In this document: piece after piece, positions 11,779-47,036 of the stretch | Numbering within the stretch: the stretch's first letter is position 1 | Layout of the letters: every line of letters begins with the position of its first letter | Source: Bacteroidales bacterium | GTDB lineage: Bacteria; Bacteroidota; Bacteroidia; Bacteroidales; UBA932 | Direction: 5' to 3' | NCBI GenBank assembly: GCA_017626555.1 | Contig: JAGAIM010000019.1 | Location: 20,345 to 84,344, forward strand | DNA length: 64,000 bases | Notes under the pieces: model-generated | Databases searched by the model: none | Told to the model about the DNA's origin: nothing | What the model saw: only the letters and a program-made list of their open reading frames with translations | Made by a program: the position numbers and the translations under genes

Positions 11779-13908
11779 ATGAGGCTTAAAGCATTGATAT
11801 TCAGTACTGCTGCTTTGTGCTTATCCTGCAGCGGCGAAACGTCATACATAGACACTCTCGGAGTAAGCGTCACAAAGGAAGAAAACCGCGAATATTCCTA
11901 TACGGACAAGAAAGCCGGATATTGGTATGGCACCACTCATCAGGAGAGTATTCAGTGGTGGTCGGGATGGAATATGGCCAAGAAAAGGGTTCTTGCAGAC
12001 TATCATATCGGAGTCGATGATGATGCACTTCGTCGCTCTGAAGCAGAGGAATGTATTGTATATCCTGACAGGCTCGAGCGAAAATGGACAAATGCCAGAG
12101 AAATTTTCCGTCTGGCTGATGACCTTCCTTTGATAAGCATAGATCTCCAAACATCTGCTGATTCTATTTTCTGTGTTCTCGATATGAGTCACCTGGAGGC
12201 TCCTACGGCATCGGAAGAAGGTATTTTCTTCACCCCGAAGGAATCTCCGGGACACAGAATTCTGCTTTCAACATCGGTGGAGTCAGGATTCCGACATATC
12301 GATGCTGGCTTGAAGGCTCCTGCATCCGCAGAGGGATTCATTCTTGCATACGGTACGGAACAGGAATGCAGAGAACTTATCGGTCTGTTCAGGTCAGAAG
12401 GAGAACGCCTCCTTCAGGAAAGGAAGGATAGAATCAATTCACTGGTGACTGAATATAATCCGGTGAAATCCAATCTTCCGGAACTTGACAGAGCCCTTGG
12501 ATGGATTACTATTACGATGGATGAACTGATAACTGAGCAGCAAGGTAACGGAATCTATGCCGGCCTGCCCTGGTTCAATGAATATTGGGGACGTGATATG
12601 TTCATTTCGATGCCTGGAGCCTGCCTTGTAACCGGTCAGTTCGATGTGGCTGAACAGATATTGAAAGATTTTGCAACTCTTCAGGACACTGATCCGGAGT
12701 CTGAGACATACGGACGTATTCCGAACAGAGCCAATCTTGAAGGAATCCTGTACAATACCACAGACGGAACTCCGAGGTTTGTCATCCAGGCTCTGGAACT
12801 TGCTGAATATTCGGGAGATACAGAATTCCTGCGTGATATATATCCAGCCATAAAGACGAGTATAGATGCTTCGATAAGCAATTATACTGATGGGAAAGGA
12901 TATCTTACTCACGCAGATGCTGATACCTGGATGGATGTCAAGCGAAACGGCATACCTGGCTCCCCACGAGGAAACAGAGCAAATGATATCCAGGCTCTGT
13001 GGTATGGTCAATTGATTGCCGGAAGCAGGATTGCATATATTTTGGGCGACGGACAGGCTGCTCAACAGTGGAAAGAAGTTGCTGATTGTCTGGCTGCAAA
13101 TTTCGAAAGTGACTATTGCGATAAGGAAGGCAGGATTATTTATGATCATCTAAATACAGATGACACTCCTGATATGCAGTTCCGTCCAAACCAACTTTAT
13201 TGCTTCGACCTTGTAAAAGATGACGAATTCAAACAGGGAGTGACTCGTCGCTGCTGGGAAGAATTGGTTTACCCTTGGGGAGTAGCCTCTCTTGCACAAT
13301 GGGACAGTCAGTTCCATCCGCAGCACGAGAACTGGCATTACTACCATAAGGATGATGCCTACCACAATGGTACTGTATGGCTTTGGAATAACGGTATTGC
13401 GATGCAGAGGATGATAGAATACGGTCAGATTGATCTTGCTTGGGAACTTTTCAAGAATATGAACCGTCAGGCTCTGGTCGAAGGTGCGGTGGGAAGTCTG
13501 AGCGAGAATGCTGATGCTCATCCGCGAGAGGGTAAGGAATGGGTCAATCGTTCCGGAACATTCCTCCAGGCCTGGAGCAATGCAGAGCACTTGAGGGTAT
13601 GGTACCAGTATTTCCTCGGCATCCGTCCCGATATGCTCAACGGAGTAATCGTGATTGAACCGAAACTTCCTTCTGAAATAACATCTCTCGAGACTTCTGT
13701 CAAAATAGGAAAAGGAACTCTCCATTACCGATATGCTGATGGAAAGGTTACAGCAGAACTTGAAGGATGTGACGCAAAGATAGACCTTCGGGAACTATCC
13801 GCACAGCAGGACTCCTCTGTTTTTGCGGGTACCGATTTCTGTCGTCCTGATCCTCTTGACACCTATCCTTGCTTCGGAACTTATTATGAGACCGCACTTA
13901 CATATTAA
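11779..13908 (+). CDS. Amylo-alpha-1,6-glucosidase / glycogen-debranching-enzyme family lipoprotein
   Basis: AGLPWFNEYWGRDMFIS, TWMD, RPNQL, YHNGTVWLW, QAWS; lipobox CLSC. Confidence 0.85.
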   Translation: MRLKALIFSTAALCLSCSGETSYIDTLGVSVTKEENREYSYTDKKAGYWYGTTHQESIQWWSGWNMAKKRVLADYHIGVDDDALRRSEAEECIVYPDRLERKWTNAREIFRLADDLPLISIDLQTSADSIFCVLDMSHLEAPTASEEGIFFTPKESPGHRILLSTSVESGFRHIDAGLKAPASAEGFILAYGTEQECRELIGLFRSEGERLLQERKDRINSLVTEYNPVKSNLPELDRALGWITITMDELITEQQGNGIYAGLPWFNEYWGRDMFISMPGACLVTGQFDVAEQILKDFATLQDTDPESETYGRIPNRANLEGILYNTTDGTPRFVIQALELAEYSGDTEFLRDIYPAIKTSIDASISNYTDGKGYLTHADADTWMDVKRNGIPGSPRGNRANDIQALWYGQLIAGSRIAYILGDGQAAQQWKEVADCLAANFESDYCDKEGRIIYDHLNTDDTPDMQFRPNQLYCFDLVKDDEFKQGVTRRCWEELVYPWGVASLAQWDSQFHPQHENWHYYHKDDAYHNGTVWLWNNGIAMQRMIEYGQIDLAWELFKNMNRQALVEGAVGSLSENADAHPREGKEWVNRSGTFLQAWSNAEHLRVWYQYFLGIRPDMLNGVIVIEPKLPSEITSLETSVKIGKGTLHYRYADGKVTAELEGCDAKIDLRELSAQQDSSVFAGTDFCRPDPLDTYPCFGTYYETALTY

Positions 13909-14438: not shown

Positions 14439-16057
14439 TCCTGCCTGGCAGTCATTGATTCATTCTGGCAATACTCGCGGATCTTTGCTTCTGATGGCTC
14501 CTGTCCGCTGAGGATGAGTTCCACTGTCCGTTTTCTGGCGATATTTTCGATCTGTCCGCCACTGAGATCGAAGTCTGTAGCCAATGAAAGGGCAATTGCA
14601 TCTGACAGACCTGGGATCATTGATTTCCATATATTCCTTTTGGCCTCGACAGTAGGACGTTCGAACTCTATCTTATATATGAAACGTCGCTCGAAGGCCT
14701 TATCAAGATTGCTTGTAAGATTTGTTGTGGCGATCATAATTCCTTCCAGTGTCTCCATTTCCTGAAGAATGATGTTCTGGAGGGAATTTTCCATTTTATC
14801 GACGGCCCTCTGTGCTCCTTCCTGACGTATTCCAAGGACGGCGTCAGCCTCATTGAAAAGAAGAATAGGCGCCACTTCCTTTTCTTTGACATATTCCCTG
14901 TAGCGGTCGAAGAGAGCCTTGATGTTCTGCTCGCTCTCCCCCACCCAGCAACTCTTTATCTGAGTCACATCCACCATCATAACATCCCTTCCGGTCAACC
15001 TTGCCAACTGATTGACTGTCTCGGTCTTTCCTGTACCTGGTGAGCCGTAGAACAAACAAGCGAATCCCTTCCGCATCCCGTTCTGCATAAGTCTTTCAGT
15101 CACCTGATTGAAATTCTCTGGCTTCAGAAGGTCGGCAAGCCTGTCTATCTGAGACTGTATGTGCGGATCATAATACATACTCTTTGCTGCGAATGACGTG
15201 TGAGGTATCAGATTCTTATCCTGCTTCTCGATCTTTTCCACCAGATCCATTCCAGGGAAGAGTTCCTCCTTTGCTTTGTCGGTCAGATGATAATAATTCG
15301 GATCCCGTACCCCTTCATCACTTTTAGTCTCGAATATGCCTTTCTGAATCAATGGCGAATCACCCGTCTTCAGTTCCTTCAGAATCCTCTTTACGGCTCT
15401 TTTTGAATCTATTATATCATCCCAGTCGTGCGTTCCGATCATATCGTCATCCTCATTTATCAACCTGTTTGCGAAAAGATGCAGCAATAAGAAGTCAAAA
15501 TTCTTGAAATTATATGAAGATGATACTTTGCAATAAGGCAGATGCATATTGGCAGAAATGAGTTCGCATAATTTCTCCTCACGGTTCCAGAGGGAAATGT
15601 CTTCCTCATCGAATATATCAGACAATCTATCGAAGAATTCATCGAATGTCAGATTGCTTATAGGCTTCGGAATATAGCATACATTCCTTCTTATGCTGTC
15701 AATCACCTCCATAGGCACGTTGAAATATCTTTCTTCCTTGCTGTTCCCTGCCTTCAGATATCCTTTTGCAGCAAGATCGTCAGCAACATTCATCATTGAA
15801 ATTATCTTTATATTCGAGGTATTGATCATTTCAGAAATGTCACTTATCCTGATCCTCCACGACGAACTCTTTTCAAAGAACAAAGACAAAAGCAGGGCCT
15901 CCTCTTTCGACAAAAGAAGTACTTTAGATAAATATTTCAGACTCTTCTCTGCCTCTTCATAGAACTTTTCACTCAGACTATGTTCCTTAGCCATCGATAC
16001 GACCTCTTCCATTGATGAAAGAATTGTCCTTGCGCTCTTTTTCCTGTTCTTTTCCAT
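14414..16057 (-). CDS. AAA+ family ATPase
   Basis: Walker A GSPGTGKT, Walker B variant LLFNEAD, TTN...LDKAFERRF, SGGQIENI; ATG at 16057 preferred because a promoter motif lies at 16078-16113. Confidence 0.88.
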   Translation of the reverse strand: MEKNRKKSARTILSSMEEVVSMAKEHSLSEKFYEEAEKSLKYLSKVLLLSKEEALLLSLFFEKSSSWRIRISDISEMINTSNIKIISMMNVADDLAAKGYLKAGNSKEERYFNVPMEVIDSIRRNVCYIPKPISNLTFDEFFDRLSDIFDEEDISLWNREEKLCELISANMHLPYCKVSSSYNFKNFDFLLLHLFANRLINEDDDMIGTHDWDDIIDSKRAVKRILKELKTGDSPLIQKGIFETKSDEGVRDPNYYHLTDKAKEELFPGMDLVEKIEKQDKNLIPHTSFAAKSMYYDPHIQSQIDRLADLLKPENFNQVTERLMQNGMRKGFACLFYGSPGTGKTETVNQLARLTGRDVMMVDVTQIKSCWVGESEQNIKALFDRYREYVKEKEVAPILLFNEADAVLGIRQEGAQRAVDKMENSLQNIILQEMETLEGIMIATTNLTSNLDKAFERRFIYKIEFERPTVEAKRNIWKSMIPGLSDAIALSLATDFDLSGGQIENIARKRTVELILSGQEPSEAKIREYCQNESMTARQEKRRKIGF

Positions 16058-44260: not shown

Positions 44261-44377
44261 AAGTTCTAGTGAATACCTTCTGGTCGCGGTTCACTAAAAC
44301 TGCTGAATATTGCTAATTCTGCAAGCATCAGGTAGGTTCTAGTGAATGTACTAGTCTTGAAATTCACTAGAACTAAA
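44261..44377. repeat. REP-like doublet A (two 38-bp palindromes)
   Basis: GTTCTAGTGAA-N16-TTCACTA(A/G)AAC twice, 73 bp apart; 109/117 identical to 45261-45377. Confidence 0.9.
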
Positions 44378-44441
44378 TGGGAAGTATCTAATATAATTAA
44401 TAGTTCCCAATGAGGATATTAGTCCAAGAAGGCTCATTATT

Positions 44442-44473
44442 TTTGTATAAATATCAATTTTTCTCTACATTTG
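44442..44473 (+). promoter_or_regulatory. Bacteroidetes housekeeping-sigma promoter of the cassette
   Basis: TTTG (44442-44445)-N20-TACATTTG (44466-44473), matches consensus TTTG-N19-21-TAnnTTTG. Confidence 0.7.
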
Positions 44474-44479
44474 TCAGTG

Positions 44480-44680
44480 TATAGGCGAAAGTCTATCGAT
44501 TAGAATACTATTTGCTCAATCGTCATCAGAATCACCACCTCGAAATGAACACGAGCAAAATTACACCTGTTATTGAGTAACTATGCTTTCCAGCGTAGGG
44601 TTACTCCCATTATACAGGTAGGCTTGTGGTGAGCCTTGATGGCGTATGGCAGTAGTCCTACGCCTTTTTTGTGCGTAGGG
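44480..44680 (+). ncRNA. Putative structured 5' leader (attenuator-like)
   Basis: GNRA hairpin 44481-44496; TTTGCTC/GAGCAAA stem; 13-bp stem 44593-44605/44651-44663 competing with CCTACGC/GCGTAGG 44657-44679. Confidence 0.4.
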
Positions 44681-44718
44681 GATTTGGAAACAAGTTTAAC
44701 CCTATAAAACAAAGTATT

Positions 44719-45167
44719 ATGAGACACAAACTTTTCTATTTTATAGTTGTTCTTGCAACTATGGTATTTTCTTCTTGTGACCCATCCGGTCTTAATACGA
44801 CGCCAAAGGAGAAACCAACAACTTATACCATTGTATATAATATTGACACTAGTTCATTGATTGAGGATTATATTTCGTTTGGAGCCTCAATCAAGGAAAG
44901 CGTTATCATAAGCGAATACAATGACAAAAACGAAAGAATAAACATACAAGATATGGAGAACATTCGATATGGCTCAAAGAAAACATTTACCTCTCATAGT
45001 CTTGCAGAAAAATAGCAGTATGCTTGGAAATAGAAATGTCATACAACGGCAAATCAGAAGATATGACAAGATGGGTCGCCCAAGTATTTTATTTAGAAAA
45101 GGAATCTAATATAAGCGTAACAATAGACGGAGAAACAAGAGTTAGTTCATATTGTCCAGTTGACTAA
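44719..45167 (+). pseudogene. Lipoprotein gene split by a 1-nt frameshift in an A5 run
   Basis: Lipobox VFSSC; stop at 45013-45015; one more A at 45008-45012 extends the frame (IAVCLEIEMSYNG...RWVAQVFYLEKE...CPVD*) to 45167. Confidence 0.7.
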
Positions 45168-45180
45168 TAACAATGAACAT

Positions 45181-45207
45181 TAAGGGAGAGCACAAAACTC
45201 TCCCTTA
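45181..45207 (+). terminator. Terminator of the cassette gene
   Basis: TAAGGGAGAG-CACAAAA-CTCTCCCTTA perfect 10-bp stem. Confidence 0.7.
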
Positions 45208-45260
45208 CTTATCAAATTGACATTTAACAACTTAAATGTAAAGCATTTAAATCATCTGGT

Positions 45261-45377
45261 AAGTTCTAGTGAATACCTTCTGGTCGCGGTTCACTAAAAC
45301 TGCTGAATATTGCCAATACCGCAAGCATCTGGGTGCTTCTAGTGAATGTGCTAGTCTTGAAATTCACTAGAACTAAA
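45261..45377. repeat. REP-like doublet B
   Basis: Direct repeat of 44261-44377, exactly 1000 bp downstream. Confidence 0.9.
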
Positions 45378-45450
45378 CGAGAAGGAGAGATACTTTCAGT
45401 AACATCATATCAAGATGATTCACTAAAACTGTCAGGAGAAGAAAGAGGCA

Positions 45451-46374
45451 TTACATATAGTCCATTGCGAGACACCTTCTGGCTTGTGCTTCCCCTATTT
45501 TGTACAATTCTTTAATGATATCATATAATTCCTGTTTATGAGAATATGAGAGGCAGTAAACGGAAGGAACTTTATATTGATTGACAATTATCCGGTCAAT
45601 TTCTTCACACAACTTCAAATCAGATATCCGATTGTAATCGTTACGGCCTTTCTCATTGATCAGCATCTGCTTAGGTGATGTCAAATAAACTCCTTTTTCG
45701 ATCAGTTCCATAGTAATCGGCTGCAACTGGACATTGTCACTCTTCTGTTCTTCAATCCACTTATCATCAGATGGCCTGTTCATATAGTATAAAAAACTCT
45801 TTGGCGAGGAATACAGCAATTCAACCTGCTGGACAGCAGTAACGTTCTTTCTTAATATAAGACCAGATTTGTCCATCTCGTAATTATCCGGCAACAGGAC
45901 ATTTCGACCTATATGACTATGTCTGTATCTTTTGCCTAGAAGGTCAGAATCCGGGGATTTGCCCAGTTGGGATTGGAATATGATATTGGCAGAACTGTAT
46001 GGATATGCAAATGGGGTTGGTGAAACACCGTGGTGCAAAGGATTACGGAGAGTATATGAAATCGCAGCCATAAGATGAAACAATCCATCTAGTTCAACAC
46101 AAAAGTATTCGCTCTCCCCTAACGGTCCTTTCCTCTTGTATTTTGTATTCATATGTCTGGTATAGGCCAGACGATTGATCCTCATCATTTTTTCCGGCGC
46201 GTCAGTCTGGGCTACATAATGTCTGTGATTGGACATATGCGAATCAGCCAAAGAGCAGGAATCAGTCTTATATAATGCTAGTGCATAACAATTGAATCCC
46301 CAATTGTAATCATCGTGACTACGGAAAAGAACTTCCTCCTTAGAGGAATGACAAAGATGAAAAACCTTTTTCAT
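45451..46374 (-). CDS. RAYT-like HUH (Y1) tyrosine transposase with C-terminal extension
   Basis: FHLC..LFRSHDDY, MSNHRH (HUH-like), YTRHMNTKYKRKGPL, ISYTLRNPLHHG (Y..NP), YPYSS; TATATTTG promoter at 46489-46496 (-). Confidence 0.85.
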   Translation of the reverse strand: MKKVFHLCHSSKEEVLFRSHDDYNWGFNCYALALYKTDSCSLADSHMSNHRHYVAQTDAPEKMMRINRLAYTRHMNTKYKRKGPLGESEYFCVELDGLFHLMAAISYTLRNPLHHGVSPTPFAYPYSSANIIFQSQLGKSPDSDLLGKRYRHSHIGRNVLLPDNYEMDKSGLILRKNVTAVQQVELLYSSPKSFLYYMNRPSDDKWIEEQKSDNVQLQPITMELIEKGVYLTSPKQMLINEKGRNDYNRISDLKLCEEIDRIIVNQYKVPSVYCLSYSHKQELYDIIKELYKIGEAQARRCLAMDYM

Positions 46375-46511
46375 AGCATAATTTCATATCTGGCTCTACT
46401 TCTACAACACTGTCATCACCTGTCTTCCATCAGACAGTCATCCGACAACAATCATTCAACACATTCTTCCCAAATGCTTGAAACACAACAAATATAAGAT
46501 AGTTTTTCAAT

Positions 46512-46926
46512 ACTTCACATAAAAAAATAGTTCTAGTGAACTTTTCTACTGTTATCTTCACCAGAAGTACCGAAAACAGCGGGATCCTTATAGTATTATA
46601 TAGTTCTAGTGAAAGTACTCGCCCTGACATTCACTAGAAGTTTGTTAATGAGCACTTTACATAAATAATAGTTCTAGTGAACTTTTCTACAAGTATCTTC
46701 ACCAGAAGTACCGAAAACAGCGGGATCCTTATAGTATTATATAGTTCTAGTGATAGTACTTGACCTGACATTCACTAGAAGTTTGTTATGAGCACTTCAC
46801 ATAAAAAATAGTTCTAGTGAACTTTTCTACTGTTATCTTCACCAGAAGTATCGAAAACAGCTGGATCCTTATAGTATTATATAGTTCTGGTGAAAGTACT
46901 CGCCCTGACATTCACTAGAAGTTTGT
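46512..46926. repeat. Tandem array of three ~140-bp units, each a doublet of 38-bp palindromes
   Basis: Palindromes start at 46530, 46603, 46671, 46744, 46811, 46884; an eleventh with an internally duplicated spacer lies at 46967-47022. Confidence 0.92.
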
Positions 46927-47036
46927 ATAGGGAAATGAAATAGAGATAATCTTCAGGATTTTAATGGTTCTGGTGATAATCTATATGAATCGATTTAATC
47001 TATAGAATCGATTCACTAGAAAGTACTGTCTGGAAA

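Follow-up and report, generated by a model that had tools for sequence, protein, structure and literature searches.

Why are the lengths within an array of inverted repeats fixed to the base when the bases between the repeat arms are not? This question is raised by a locus in a 64,000-nucleotide (nt) stretch of a Bacteroidales bacterium genome (GTDB lineage Bacteria; Bacteroidota; Bacteroidia; Bacteroidales; UBA932), taken from contig JAGAIM010000019.1 of GenBank assembly GCA_017626555.1 (positions 20,345 to 84,344, forward strand) and hereafter called the window. Paired palindromes stand there on both sides of a gene for a 307-aa protein. A preliminary description made from the sequence alone held that the repeat geometry was fixed and the spacer sequence free. 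It suggested a helically phased protein-binding or synapsis array, or a length-measuring processing step, rather than a simple terminator.

Our favoured answer, held with moderate confidence, is that the palindromes are the cognate repeats of a RAYT-like Y1-HUH nuclease encoded between them, in a REPtron-type partnership with a phased, curved duplex platform. The partnership, the geometry, the co-variation of arms and protein, the vertical persistence with lineage-specific amplification, and the helical phasing were each computed.

Organization of the palindrome pairs

The window is part of contig C58 of a 3.09-Mb genome (G000) with 222 contigs. Ten palindromes of the form GTTCTAGTGAA-N16-TTCACTAGAAC, with at most one mismatch per arm, were located in it. 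Counted with 11-bp arms, they start at 44263, 44336, 45263, 45336, 46530, 46603, 46671, 46744, 46811, and 46884, as had been described, and each spacer is exactly 16 nt. They form five pairs, all of which (5/5) showed the reported distance of 73 bp from start to start and a linker of 35 nt. The arm motif (at most one mismatch) occurred 19 times in the window, compared to 1.35 expected occurrences and a maximum of 5 among 100 shuffles.

The homologous loci analyzed below extend the arm to 12 bp; by this definition the linker is 33 nt, and the coordinates that follow refer to the longer unit. Pair 1 (44262-44374; palindromes 44262-44301 and 44335-44374, with 12-bp arms and 16-nt loops) adjoins the lipoate-ligase gene. 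Pair 2 (45262-45374; palindromes 45262-45301 and 45335-45374) lies 77 nt 3' of the stop codon of the nuclease gene and is 92% identical to pair 1 over 124 bp, at an offset of exactly 1000 bp. Upstream of the nuclease gene, pairs 3-5 (46529-46922) follow one another in tandem with a period of 140-141 bp. Their palindromes lie at 46529-46568, 46602-46641, 46670-46709, 46743-46782, 46810-46849, and 46883-46922, and the tandem copies are 86-97% identical.

An eleventh, aberrant palindrome (46966-47023, or 46967-47022 with 11-bp arms) abuts the stop codon of the DUF3810 gene (47037). It has the usual arms and a 34-nt loop composed of the 16-mer AATCTATATGAATCGA, TT, and the near copy AATCTATAGAATCGA, which agrees with the near-tandem duplication noted earlier. 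By its sequence, this copy is a normal unit whose 16-nt loop grew to 34 nt by internal tandem duplication. The nuclease gene in the window is accompanied by one adjoining pair downstream (pair 2) and by three pairs plus the aberrant copy upstream. In addition, an orphan single arm, GTTTTAGTGAA, is found on the minus strand at 45419-45429, between pair 2 and the 3' end of the nuclease gene, and is probably a remnant of a further palindrome.

Identification of the nuclease encoded between the pairs

The gene between the arrays (45451-46374, minus strand) encodes the 307-aa RAYT-like Y1-HUH protein P0001. This protein contains the motif MSNHRH (H50 and H52) and the tyrosine motif SYTLRNPLHHG (Y107, R110, N111, H114, and H115). 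In an alignment of 29 homologs, M47, H50, and H52 of MSNHxH were invariant, as were Y107, R110, N111, H114, H115, and G116 of SYxLRNPLHHG. The two motifs correspond to the HUH and catalytic-tyrosine motifs of Y1 transposases.

The structure of P0001 was modelled with AlphaFold (AF2) at a predicted local distance difference test (pLDDT) score of 92.4. When the model was compared to the PDB with Foldseek, the top match was 4er8_A, the Escherichia coli RAYT on its REP hairpin (E 2.6e-5), followed by the TnpA proteins of ISDra2, IS200, and IS608. A weak hit to NCBIfam REP_Tyr_transpos pointed the same way. Residues ~130-307 form a conserved helical region, and the C-terminal 170 residues were confidently modelled jointly with the catalytic domain in the full-length model. 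More than 170 homologs of ~305 aa were found, nearly all of them unnamed, and PF01797 was present in only 1 of the 120 homologs listed.

Contigs from RNA runs cover the nuclease gene and touch the array, which is a weak sign of expression. Between the proximal pair and the nuclease start codon (46375-46528), the window contains TATATTTG, which we take to match the Bacteroidetes -7 promoter motif. With the proximal pair lying just upstream of this probable promoter, autoregulation of the nuclease is possible.

A reading of the palindromes as integron attC sites with a recombinase was dropped, as the scan of ten neighbouring open reading frames (ORFs) returned no integrase or recombinase domain. 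The outer motif has the polarity GTT...AAC, in our own reading the reverse of attC.

Conservation of geometry in homologous loci

One genome per GTDB species was scanned, and at least 275 loci encoding relatives of P0001 were found, of which 80 were fetched. These 80 loci came mostly from Candidatus Cryptobacteroides and other Bacteroidales metagenome-assembled genomes of ruminant and other animal guts. In most of them, the gene was bracketed by palindromes with wholly different arms, such as GGGTACTACA, CGGTGCGACA, AGCTGGGCAA, CGTCAGTCAT, and CACCTGTGTCA. The usual layout was a pair, ~117-141 nt, a 912-nt gene, 11-45 nt, and a pair. Family-wide, the stretch from the proximal pair to the start codon of the nuclease mostly measured ~117-141 nt, with peaks at 136/137. 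The upstream and downstream pairs were direct copies that shared the same linker and the same following flank.

The lengths were found not to vary at will in these loci, and the claim of a fixed geometry withstood the refuting condition that the preliminary description had set. Among 70 pairs, the spacing was 73 bp in 55, 71-72 bp in 8, 80-85 bp in 6, and 69 bp in 1, and the loop was 16 nt. Palindromes with 11-nt arms shared a common centre and clustered in the gene flanks, where spacers of even length near 16 prevailed (102 at a spacer of 16, ~10 at odd spacers, and 0-2 in gene bodies). The stem occupied positions 8-19 from the palindrome centre. Position 19, which lay outside the selection criterion, paired in 67-78% of family members, and positions 7 and 20 paired at chance level. 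Therefore, the true unit is 12-16-12 (40 bp), and the 11-bp arm given by the preliminary description is one base pair too short. The outermost A[C/G]...[C/G]T and the innermost CA...TG of the stem recurred across arm families. Outside the stem, no conserved tetranucleotide was found in 21 arm families, and the GT[AG]G/CGTC foot of REPs was absent.

The arms changed together with the protein. They were identical in orthologs of 81-95% protein identity, slightly altered at 57% identity (GATTTAGTGAA), and unrelated between loci, which gave the 21 arm families. Five genomes carrying orthologs (G041-G045) were searched with a gap of 10-22 nt, and 63 of the 64 copies had a 16-nt loop, the other having 17 nt. 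These genomes contained 14, 7, 37, 1, and 5 copies, respectively, and the genome with 37 (G043) had amplified its own sub-family. The arm sequence is confined to a small clade. A first impression that the arm motif was species-specific (0 of 40 sampled relatives) was a sampling artefact, since G041-G045 carry the motif.

Paralogs in the same genome have palindromes of their own. A paralog on contig C43 (46% identical; C43:13573-14490) is accompanied by ATCGGTGAGACA-N16-TGTCTCACCGAT at 13327, at 13400 (degenerate, 73 bp further on), and at 14564 (region C43:13327-14603). Related ACCGGTGMTACA palindromes occur at C17:47080 and 47153 (73 bp apart), C60:42654, C216:85978, and C182:144998. A more distant paralog on C146 (23% identical; C146:16286-17116) has single palindromes ACGCTCGCGGTA-N16-TACCGCGAGCAT on both sides (C146:16083-17207). 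The 12-16-12 unit therefore seems older than the arrangement in pairs. Similar GCCCGTGGTA-N16-TACCACGGGC units were observed at C162:5122 and C182:61950.

These data bear on the idea that the geometry has no function and is the residue of recent duplication or gene conversion of one ancestral 113-bp sequence. The 92% identity of pairs 1 and 2 and the 86-97% identity of the tandem pairs 3-5 would fit such an origin. However, the same geometry was kept over 21 unrelated arm families and in distant paralogs, which contradicts it. An orthologous pair on contig C92 (described below) also kept the arms of its first palindrome intact and gained no insertion or deletion (indel), with loop and linker diverged at roughly 40% of positions. 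Moreover, the A/T phasing described in the next section was preserved when bases flipped between AAA and TTT. We give this explanation hardly any credence, and the concern that all copies stem from one recent duplication is answered by the unrelated arms and by the C92 pair, orthologous across species at 82-92% DNA identity.

Helical phasing of A/T tracts in loops and linkers

The window's four spacer types had been described as unrelated. Two of them, TGTACTAGTCTTGAAA and AGTACTCGCCCTGACA, share 11 of 16 bases in register, so the description does not hold for these two. The fixed geometry also made it possible to stack pairs from 21 arm families with unrelated arms without gaps. In this stack, A/T runs of at least 3 were centred at ~15 and 25 in loop 1, at 46, 56, and 66 in the linker, and at 88 and 97 in loop 2. 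At positions 45-47, 65-67, and 96-98, A or T was seen in 95-100% of the sequences, and G/C prevailed in the loop centres. To call the spacer and linker sequence free was thus an overstatement.

The Fourier maximum lay at 10.4 bp, and the mean per-pair amplitude was 0.172 compared to 0.054 for shuffles (standard deviation of the mean 0.006). Individually, 19 of the 21 pairs exceeded 95% of their own shuffles, and the phases clustered tightly. At 10.4 bp per turn, 73 bp corresponds to 7.0 turns. The missing beats near 36 and 77 fall within the arms; hence, the arms have to be taken as linear duplex for one phase to extend over the 113 bp. At the same position, some families have AAA and others TTT (9 vs 9 in the third linker tract), and the tracts do not pair mutually. 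This argues for a constraint on the double helix and not on a folded single strand. Phased A-tracts are a classical signature of intrinsically curved DNA or of DNA wrapped on protein. The option of a helically phased protein-binding or synapsis array thus gains direct support at the sequence level from tracts that stay in phase through loops and linker.

Internal symmetry was less general. The arm in the window is indeed a mini-palindrome (TTC...GAA), as reported, but this is not a family feature: arm-internal self-complementarity in the 21 other arm families was 28%, which equals chance. Loop 1 and loop 2 were identical at 7.0/16 positions in direct and 6.8/16 in inverted orientation, and linker self-complementarity was 4.0/16, also at chance level.

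The rival that these results address most directly is a pure single-stranded hairpin model, as for IS608 and the E. coli RAYT. Each palindrome would act as a hairpin on one strand during replication, a dimer would hold two of them, the lengths would be set by the grip of the enzyme, and the A/T tracts would ease melting. The structures closest to the Y1-HUH fold are all complexes with single-stranded hairpins, and the arms are perfectly complementary in every family. As single-stranded DNA, pairs fold better than shuffles (z -2.5 to -4.8), and the folding of a pair permits either 1L:1R with 2L:2R or 1L:2R pairing. The flanking pairs are direct, like the left and right ends of IS200/IS605 elements on one strand. 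Stem mismatches on the sense strand, counted over the family set as a test for hairpin use on one strand, comprised 31 A.C and 16 G.T, a weak excess of A.C. Within pairs, the mismatches were of the same type in 16 cases and mixed in 21.

On the other hand, the tracts keep one helical phase across the arms, and their steps of 21-22 bp between loop and linker can be understood only with the arms counted as linear B-DNA. Interchangeable A and T tracts that do not pair with each other are also difficult to accommodate, and a 16-nt loop is unlike any known Y1 substrate. Finally, for easy melting the region would have to be A/T-rich throughout, and neither a 10.4-bp phase nor a G/C-rich loop centre would be called for. 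We regard the pure hairpin model as rather unlikely.

Distribution of the pairs in the genome

The G000 genome contains 43 palindromes with exactly 16 nt between the arms, compared to 0 for a reversed-pattern control. Allowing spacers of 8-44 nt added just two members to the family, one with 17 nt and the aberrant one with 34 nt. An arm was followed by an inverted arm at a distance of 26 in 42 cases, and an inverted arm by an arm at a distance of 47 in 20 cases. Forty-two of the 43 copies were paired, and all pairs (21/21) were spaced at 73 bp. Pairs occur on C9, C43, C58, C76, C92, C121, C182, C187, C201, and C216, that is, at 10 places on nine contigs outside the window. The distance from pair to pair varied from 67 bp to kilobases, with tandem periods of 140-141 bp in the window and 199 bp on C182. 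Tandem pair arrays without genes were also present.

One sub-family (C9:55305-57955, C76:5895-6007, C76:13401-13513, and C121:3254-3366) precedes tandem FtsX/MacB-type permease paralogs, with 16-19 nt up to their start codons. These pairs directly follow the CCCCGACC...GGGG hairpin of the preceding gene. They are probably co-transcribed and were probably copied along with the permease gene family.

The position of such pairs raises the question of whether they are host regulatory or structural elements (operator arrays, nucleoid-protein sites, or RNA hairpin stabilisers or attenuators), with the position of the nuclease gene being coincidental. The pairs are intergenic in housekeeping operons, including those close to the permease starts, phased A/T tracts are typical of bending-protein sites, and the RNA-run contigs touch the array. 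Coincidence is difficult to reconcile with the majority of the 80 loci, in which pairs stand on both flanks of a homologous gene and the arms change with the protein. Arrays without genes and copy numbers from 1 to 37 by lineage also argue against a host element.

An RNA role found no support in the region either. An Rfam 15 search returned only two snoRNA matches at chance level (E 0.2-1). In the terminator scan, no palindrome was scored as a terminator-like site, and the two hits of the scan lay elsewhere. The palindromes have 16-nt loops with no T run after them, and many pairs stand upstream of genes, so the preliminary description was right to set aside a simple terminator. We consider a host element very improbable.

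Further repeats were observed near the pairs. At C201:55853-55900 and C43:60705-60790, a 12-nt arm is repeated head to tail just outside the pair (TTCACTAGAAC, CTTCGCTAGAAC, CTTCACTAGAAC, and CTTTGCTAGAAC). This could reflect slippage, or it could be the trace of the arm end having been cut and joined repeatedly. A hairpin repeat of ~62 nt, AAGCCTGCTGTGAGCGAG...CTCGCTCACAGCAGGCTT, lies beside several pairs of the C182/C187/C43 sub-family (C187:54457-54533, C182:101076-101147, C43:60794-60865, and C43:61342-61413).

The genome also contains another dispersed hairpin family, AATGCCTGCTGC-(6-8 nt)-GCAGCAGGCATT, at C9:28478, C40:74438, C40:98011, C43:106366, C60:129584, and C68:12909, and at C174:25893, C182:45073, C182:151937, C186:7492, C187:61602, and C201:17331. 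Copies of it also stand near a PF01797-positive gene on C162 (L005). This family may represent a second, unrelated REP/RAYT-type pairing in the same genome.

Inheritance of the nuclease gene and the pairs

The nuclease gene lies between the DUF3810 cluster and the lipoate-ligase/FtsH genes in loci L008 and L009 (~91% DNA identity), L010 and L011 (~80%), and L012 (57% protein identity). Two or three family members were present in 23 genomes, and in none of these did any two share more than 70% identity.

A solo pair on C92 (C92:8053-8165) was followed across species. It lies between a gene for a Cys/Met pyridoxal phosphate enzyme and a gene for an 820-aa product, which presumably is an aspartokinase/homoserine dehydrogenase, and the pair is orthologous in three relatives. 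The DNA identity of these orthologs is 82-92%. The first palindrome keeps both arms in 4/4 genomes, with one A/G position varying, and the second palindrome is without one arm. At 82% identity, 7 of the 16 positions of the first loop and about a third of those in the linker differ, with no indels. As read from these alignments, the pairs are inherited vertically with constrained arms and lengths, and the sub-families that expand differ from lineage to lineage. Vertical persistence with lineage-specific expansion is the behaviour described for REP/REPIN populations (PMC3116915, PMC6006769).

These results were weighed against an autonomous insertion sequence, in which the gene and its two flanking pairs would move as an IS200/IS605-like unit of ~1.3 kb and solo pairs would be miniature derivatives (cf. 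MITEs, PATEs). The compact pair-gene-pair layout with direct ends suits such an element, as do the two to three family members per genome. Many homologs lie on contigs of 1-2 kb, as is the case with assembly-breaking repeats, but repeated pairs explain the short contigs equally well. Across species whose proteins are 95% to 57% identical, the gene keeps its chromosomal site, and none of the 23 genomes contained the near-identical copies that recent movement would leave. Each paralog has different arms, and no tnpB-like partner is present. An insertion sequence is thus improbable. Because the gene is syntenic across species and the paralogs within a genome are at most 70% identical, the system reads as REPtron-like, with a domesticated nuclease.

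The pairs also appear at sites where strains differ. An 887-bp segment between pairs 1 and 2 (44375-45261, plus strand) contains a small lipoprotein-like ORF (44720-45015) and a hairpin (45181-45207) to which the terminator scan gave a terminator-like score on the minus strand. The strains of runs X5, X9, and X10 carry the segment. L008 and the strain of run X22 do not; in these, three tandem pairs directly follow the ligase flank. The pairs are therefore also sites of DNA gain or loss. This gain or loss could have proceeded either through the nuclease or through ordinary recombination between the 124-bp direct repeats. In contigs of other strains, one more A follows 45007, so the lipoprotein-like ORF of the window may be frameshifted, with the gene continuing towards 45168.

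Other sites were mixed. The C92 site, occupied in three relatives, holds another insert of ~370 bp in the fourth (L091, G044:C32), bounded by the inverted repeats TGTCATTTCGA...TCGAAATGACA. This insert is a further small mobile element at that intergenic position. In relatives, the sites of C216 and C201 were mosaics of other repeats. Logan contigs of public runs break inside the arms and yielded no informative excision or insertion joints.

Discussion

Under the REPtron-type partnership that we favour, in which uncultured gut Bacteroidales (Candidatus Cryptobacteroides and relatives) carry a domesticated nuclease for single-stranded DNA, the nuclease would read the 12-bp arms, and its specificity would co-evolve with them. 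The phased A/T tracts would curve the linear duplex or let its 113 bp wrap, which would place four arms on one protein surface, and the spacing of 7.0 turns would make equivalent arms face the same way. The lengths would be fixed because one inserted or deleted base rotates an arm by 35 degrees and displaces the arms on the platform. The bases between the arms would matter only as A/T tract versus G/C. The palindromes would then be melted or extruded on the platform to provide the single-stranded hairpin for the HUH active site. Nicking and strand transfer would copy or rearrange pairs, resulting in tandem arrays and lineage-specific bursts, and by exchange, the DNA enclosed by two pairs, such as the 887-bp segment, would be gained or lost.

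Several observations weigh against this proposal. HUH enzymes cut single-stranded DNA, so a duplex platform needs the extra step of melting or extrusion. Within the copies of the G000 species, the A/T phasing was visible but weaker than across the family, and the phased tracts could serve a host nucleoid protein (cf. IHF in BIME-1) rather than the nuclease. No empty site, excision joint, or target duplication was found among three solo pairs in four relatives or in public-run contigs.

The assignment of the protein is open to similar objections. P0001 had no match in Pfam even at E 10, PF01797 (Y1_Tnp) included, and scored 16.8 bits against NCBIfam NF047646 (REP_Tyr_transpos), below its cut-off of 80. 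Its C-terminal half modelled alone had a pLDDT of 65, no Foldseek match, and no recognisable DNA-binding fold. A PDB sequence-profile search with the C-terminal domain returned nothing relevant.

The closest known system is the REPtron of E. coli (TnpA-REP, PDB 4er8, with REP/BIME; PMC3333891, PMC3479197). In both, a Y1-HUH gene stands between its own intergenic palindromes, with more of them dispersed over the genome, there is one gene per repeat type with vertical inheritance, and the repeats are regularly spaced in composite units. The BIME-1 linker holds a site for the bending protein IHF, which may be compared to the phased linker here. In contrast, the protein here has 307 aa compared to 165 aa of the E. 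coli RAYT, a conserved C-terminal half, and no recognition by Pfam Y1_Tnp. The repeats here lack the 5' GT[AG]G foot and combine a perfect 12-bp stem with a 16-nt loop, whereas REPs have an imperfect stem and a short loop. In addition, the flanking pairs here are direct copies, the 73-bp geometry is common to all arm families, and the A/T tracts are phased through the unit.

The REPINs of Pseudomonas fluorescens SBW25 (Bertels and Rainey 2011, PMC3116915) resemble the pairs in that the doublet is the unit and is over-represented with a characteristic spacing. In SBW25, this spacing is 71 bp for GI and 110 bp for GII, and the distances between doublets vary (PMC3116915). Several RAYT paralogs per genome, each with its own repeats, and arrays clustered around the RAYT gene are further shared features. 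However, a REPIN consists of two inverted REPs that fold into one long hairpin, with a family-dependent spacing. Here, each unit is a full palindrome, and the orientation within a pair is indistinguishable by the loop comparison given above. The linker is not self-complementary, the spacing is 73 bp across families, and the copies number in tens, not hundreds.

The TnpA proteins of IS200/IS605 (IS608, ISDra2) share the catalytic fold, and their elements also have direct hairpin-forming palindromes on both flanks of one strand. They differ from the present system, which lacks tnpB and carries a pair of palindromes with 16-nt loops per side. Its gene is present as a single, syntenic copy without identical duplicates.

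TnpA-Y1 subclass 2.6 (Bertels group 5) of Bacteroidetes (Quentin et al. 2018, PMC6006769) belongs to the same phylum and has an NHxH-type HUH motif. By the description in that paper, it is set apart by a median length of 179 aa and the Y motif YIH[QN]NP, compared to ~305 aa and SYxLRNPLHHG in the family here. Subclasses with a large C-terminal domain were reported without REPs (PMC6006769); unlike them, the family here has both a large C-terminal domain and palindromes.

In its organization, the system matches REPtrons and REPINs; at the sequence level, it falls below the profile thresholds, has no GT[AG]G foot, and, by the loop comparison, shows no clear inverted doublet. A search of the available literature returned no description of this nuclease family or of phased A-tracts in REP-type repeats.

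We further propose, tentatively and with more doubt than confidence, that the 113-bp pair is a dedicated duplex-wrapping module, and that the ~305-aa Y1-HUH branch, not recognised before, oligomerises on four 12-bp arms held in register by intrinsically curved DNA with an A/T tract in each helical turn. If so, the platform, and not the single strands of a replication fork, would deliver the hairpins to the active site, a way of presenting the substrate that would be new for RAYT-type enzymes. This would also point to a means by which a RAYT could coordinate two cleavages, which is the 'monomer problem' raised for E. coli TnpA-REP (PMC3479197). The module may also have been recruited for chromosome architecture or as a recombination hot spot where small gene cassettes are exchanged.

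REP/RAYT systems count among the most common repeats of bacteria. Nearly all work on them concerns Proteobacteria, and the handling of the repeats by RAYTs in the cell is obscure. The present family is large and unannotated, with its loci in GTDB species genomes coming mostly from ruminant and gut Bacteroidales. In practical terms, metagenome assemblies break at these pairs, and annotations list the gene as 'hypothetical'. The pairs also mark the gain or loss of small gene segments between strains. In this family, the arms were replaced many times and the 12-16-12/73-bp frame with its 10.4-bp A/T phase was kept, which separates what the protein would read from what the complex would need.

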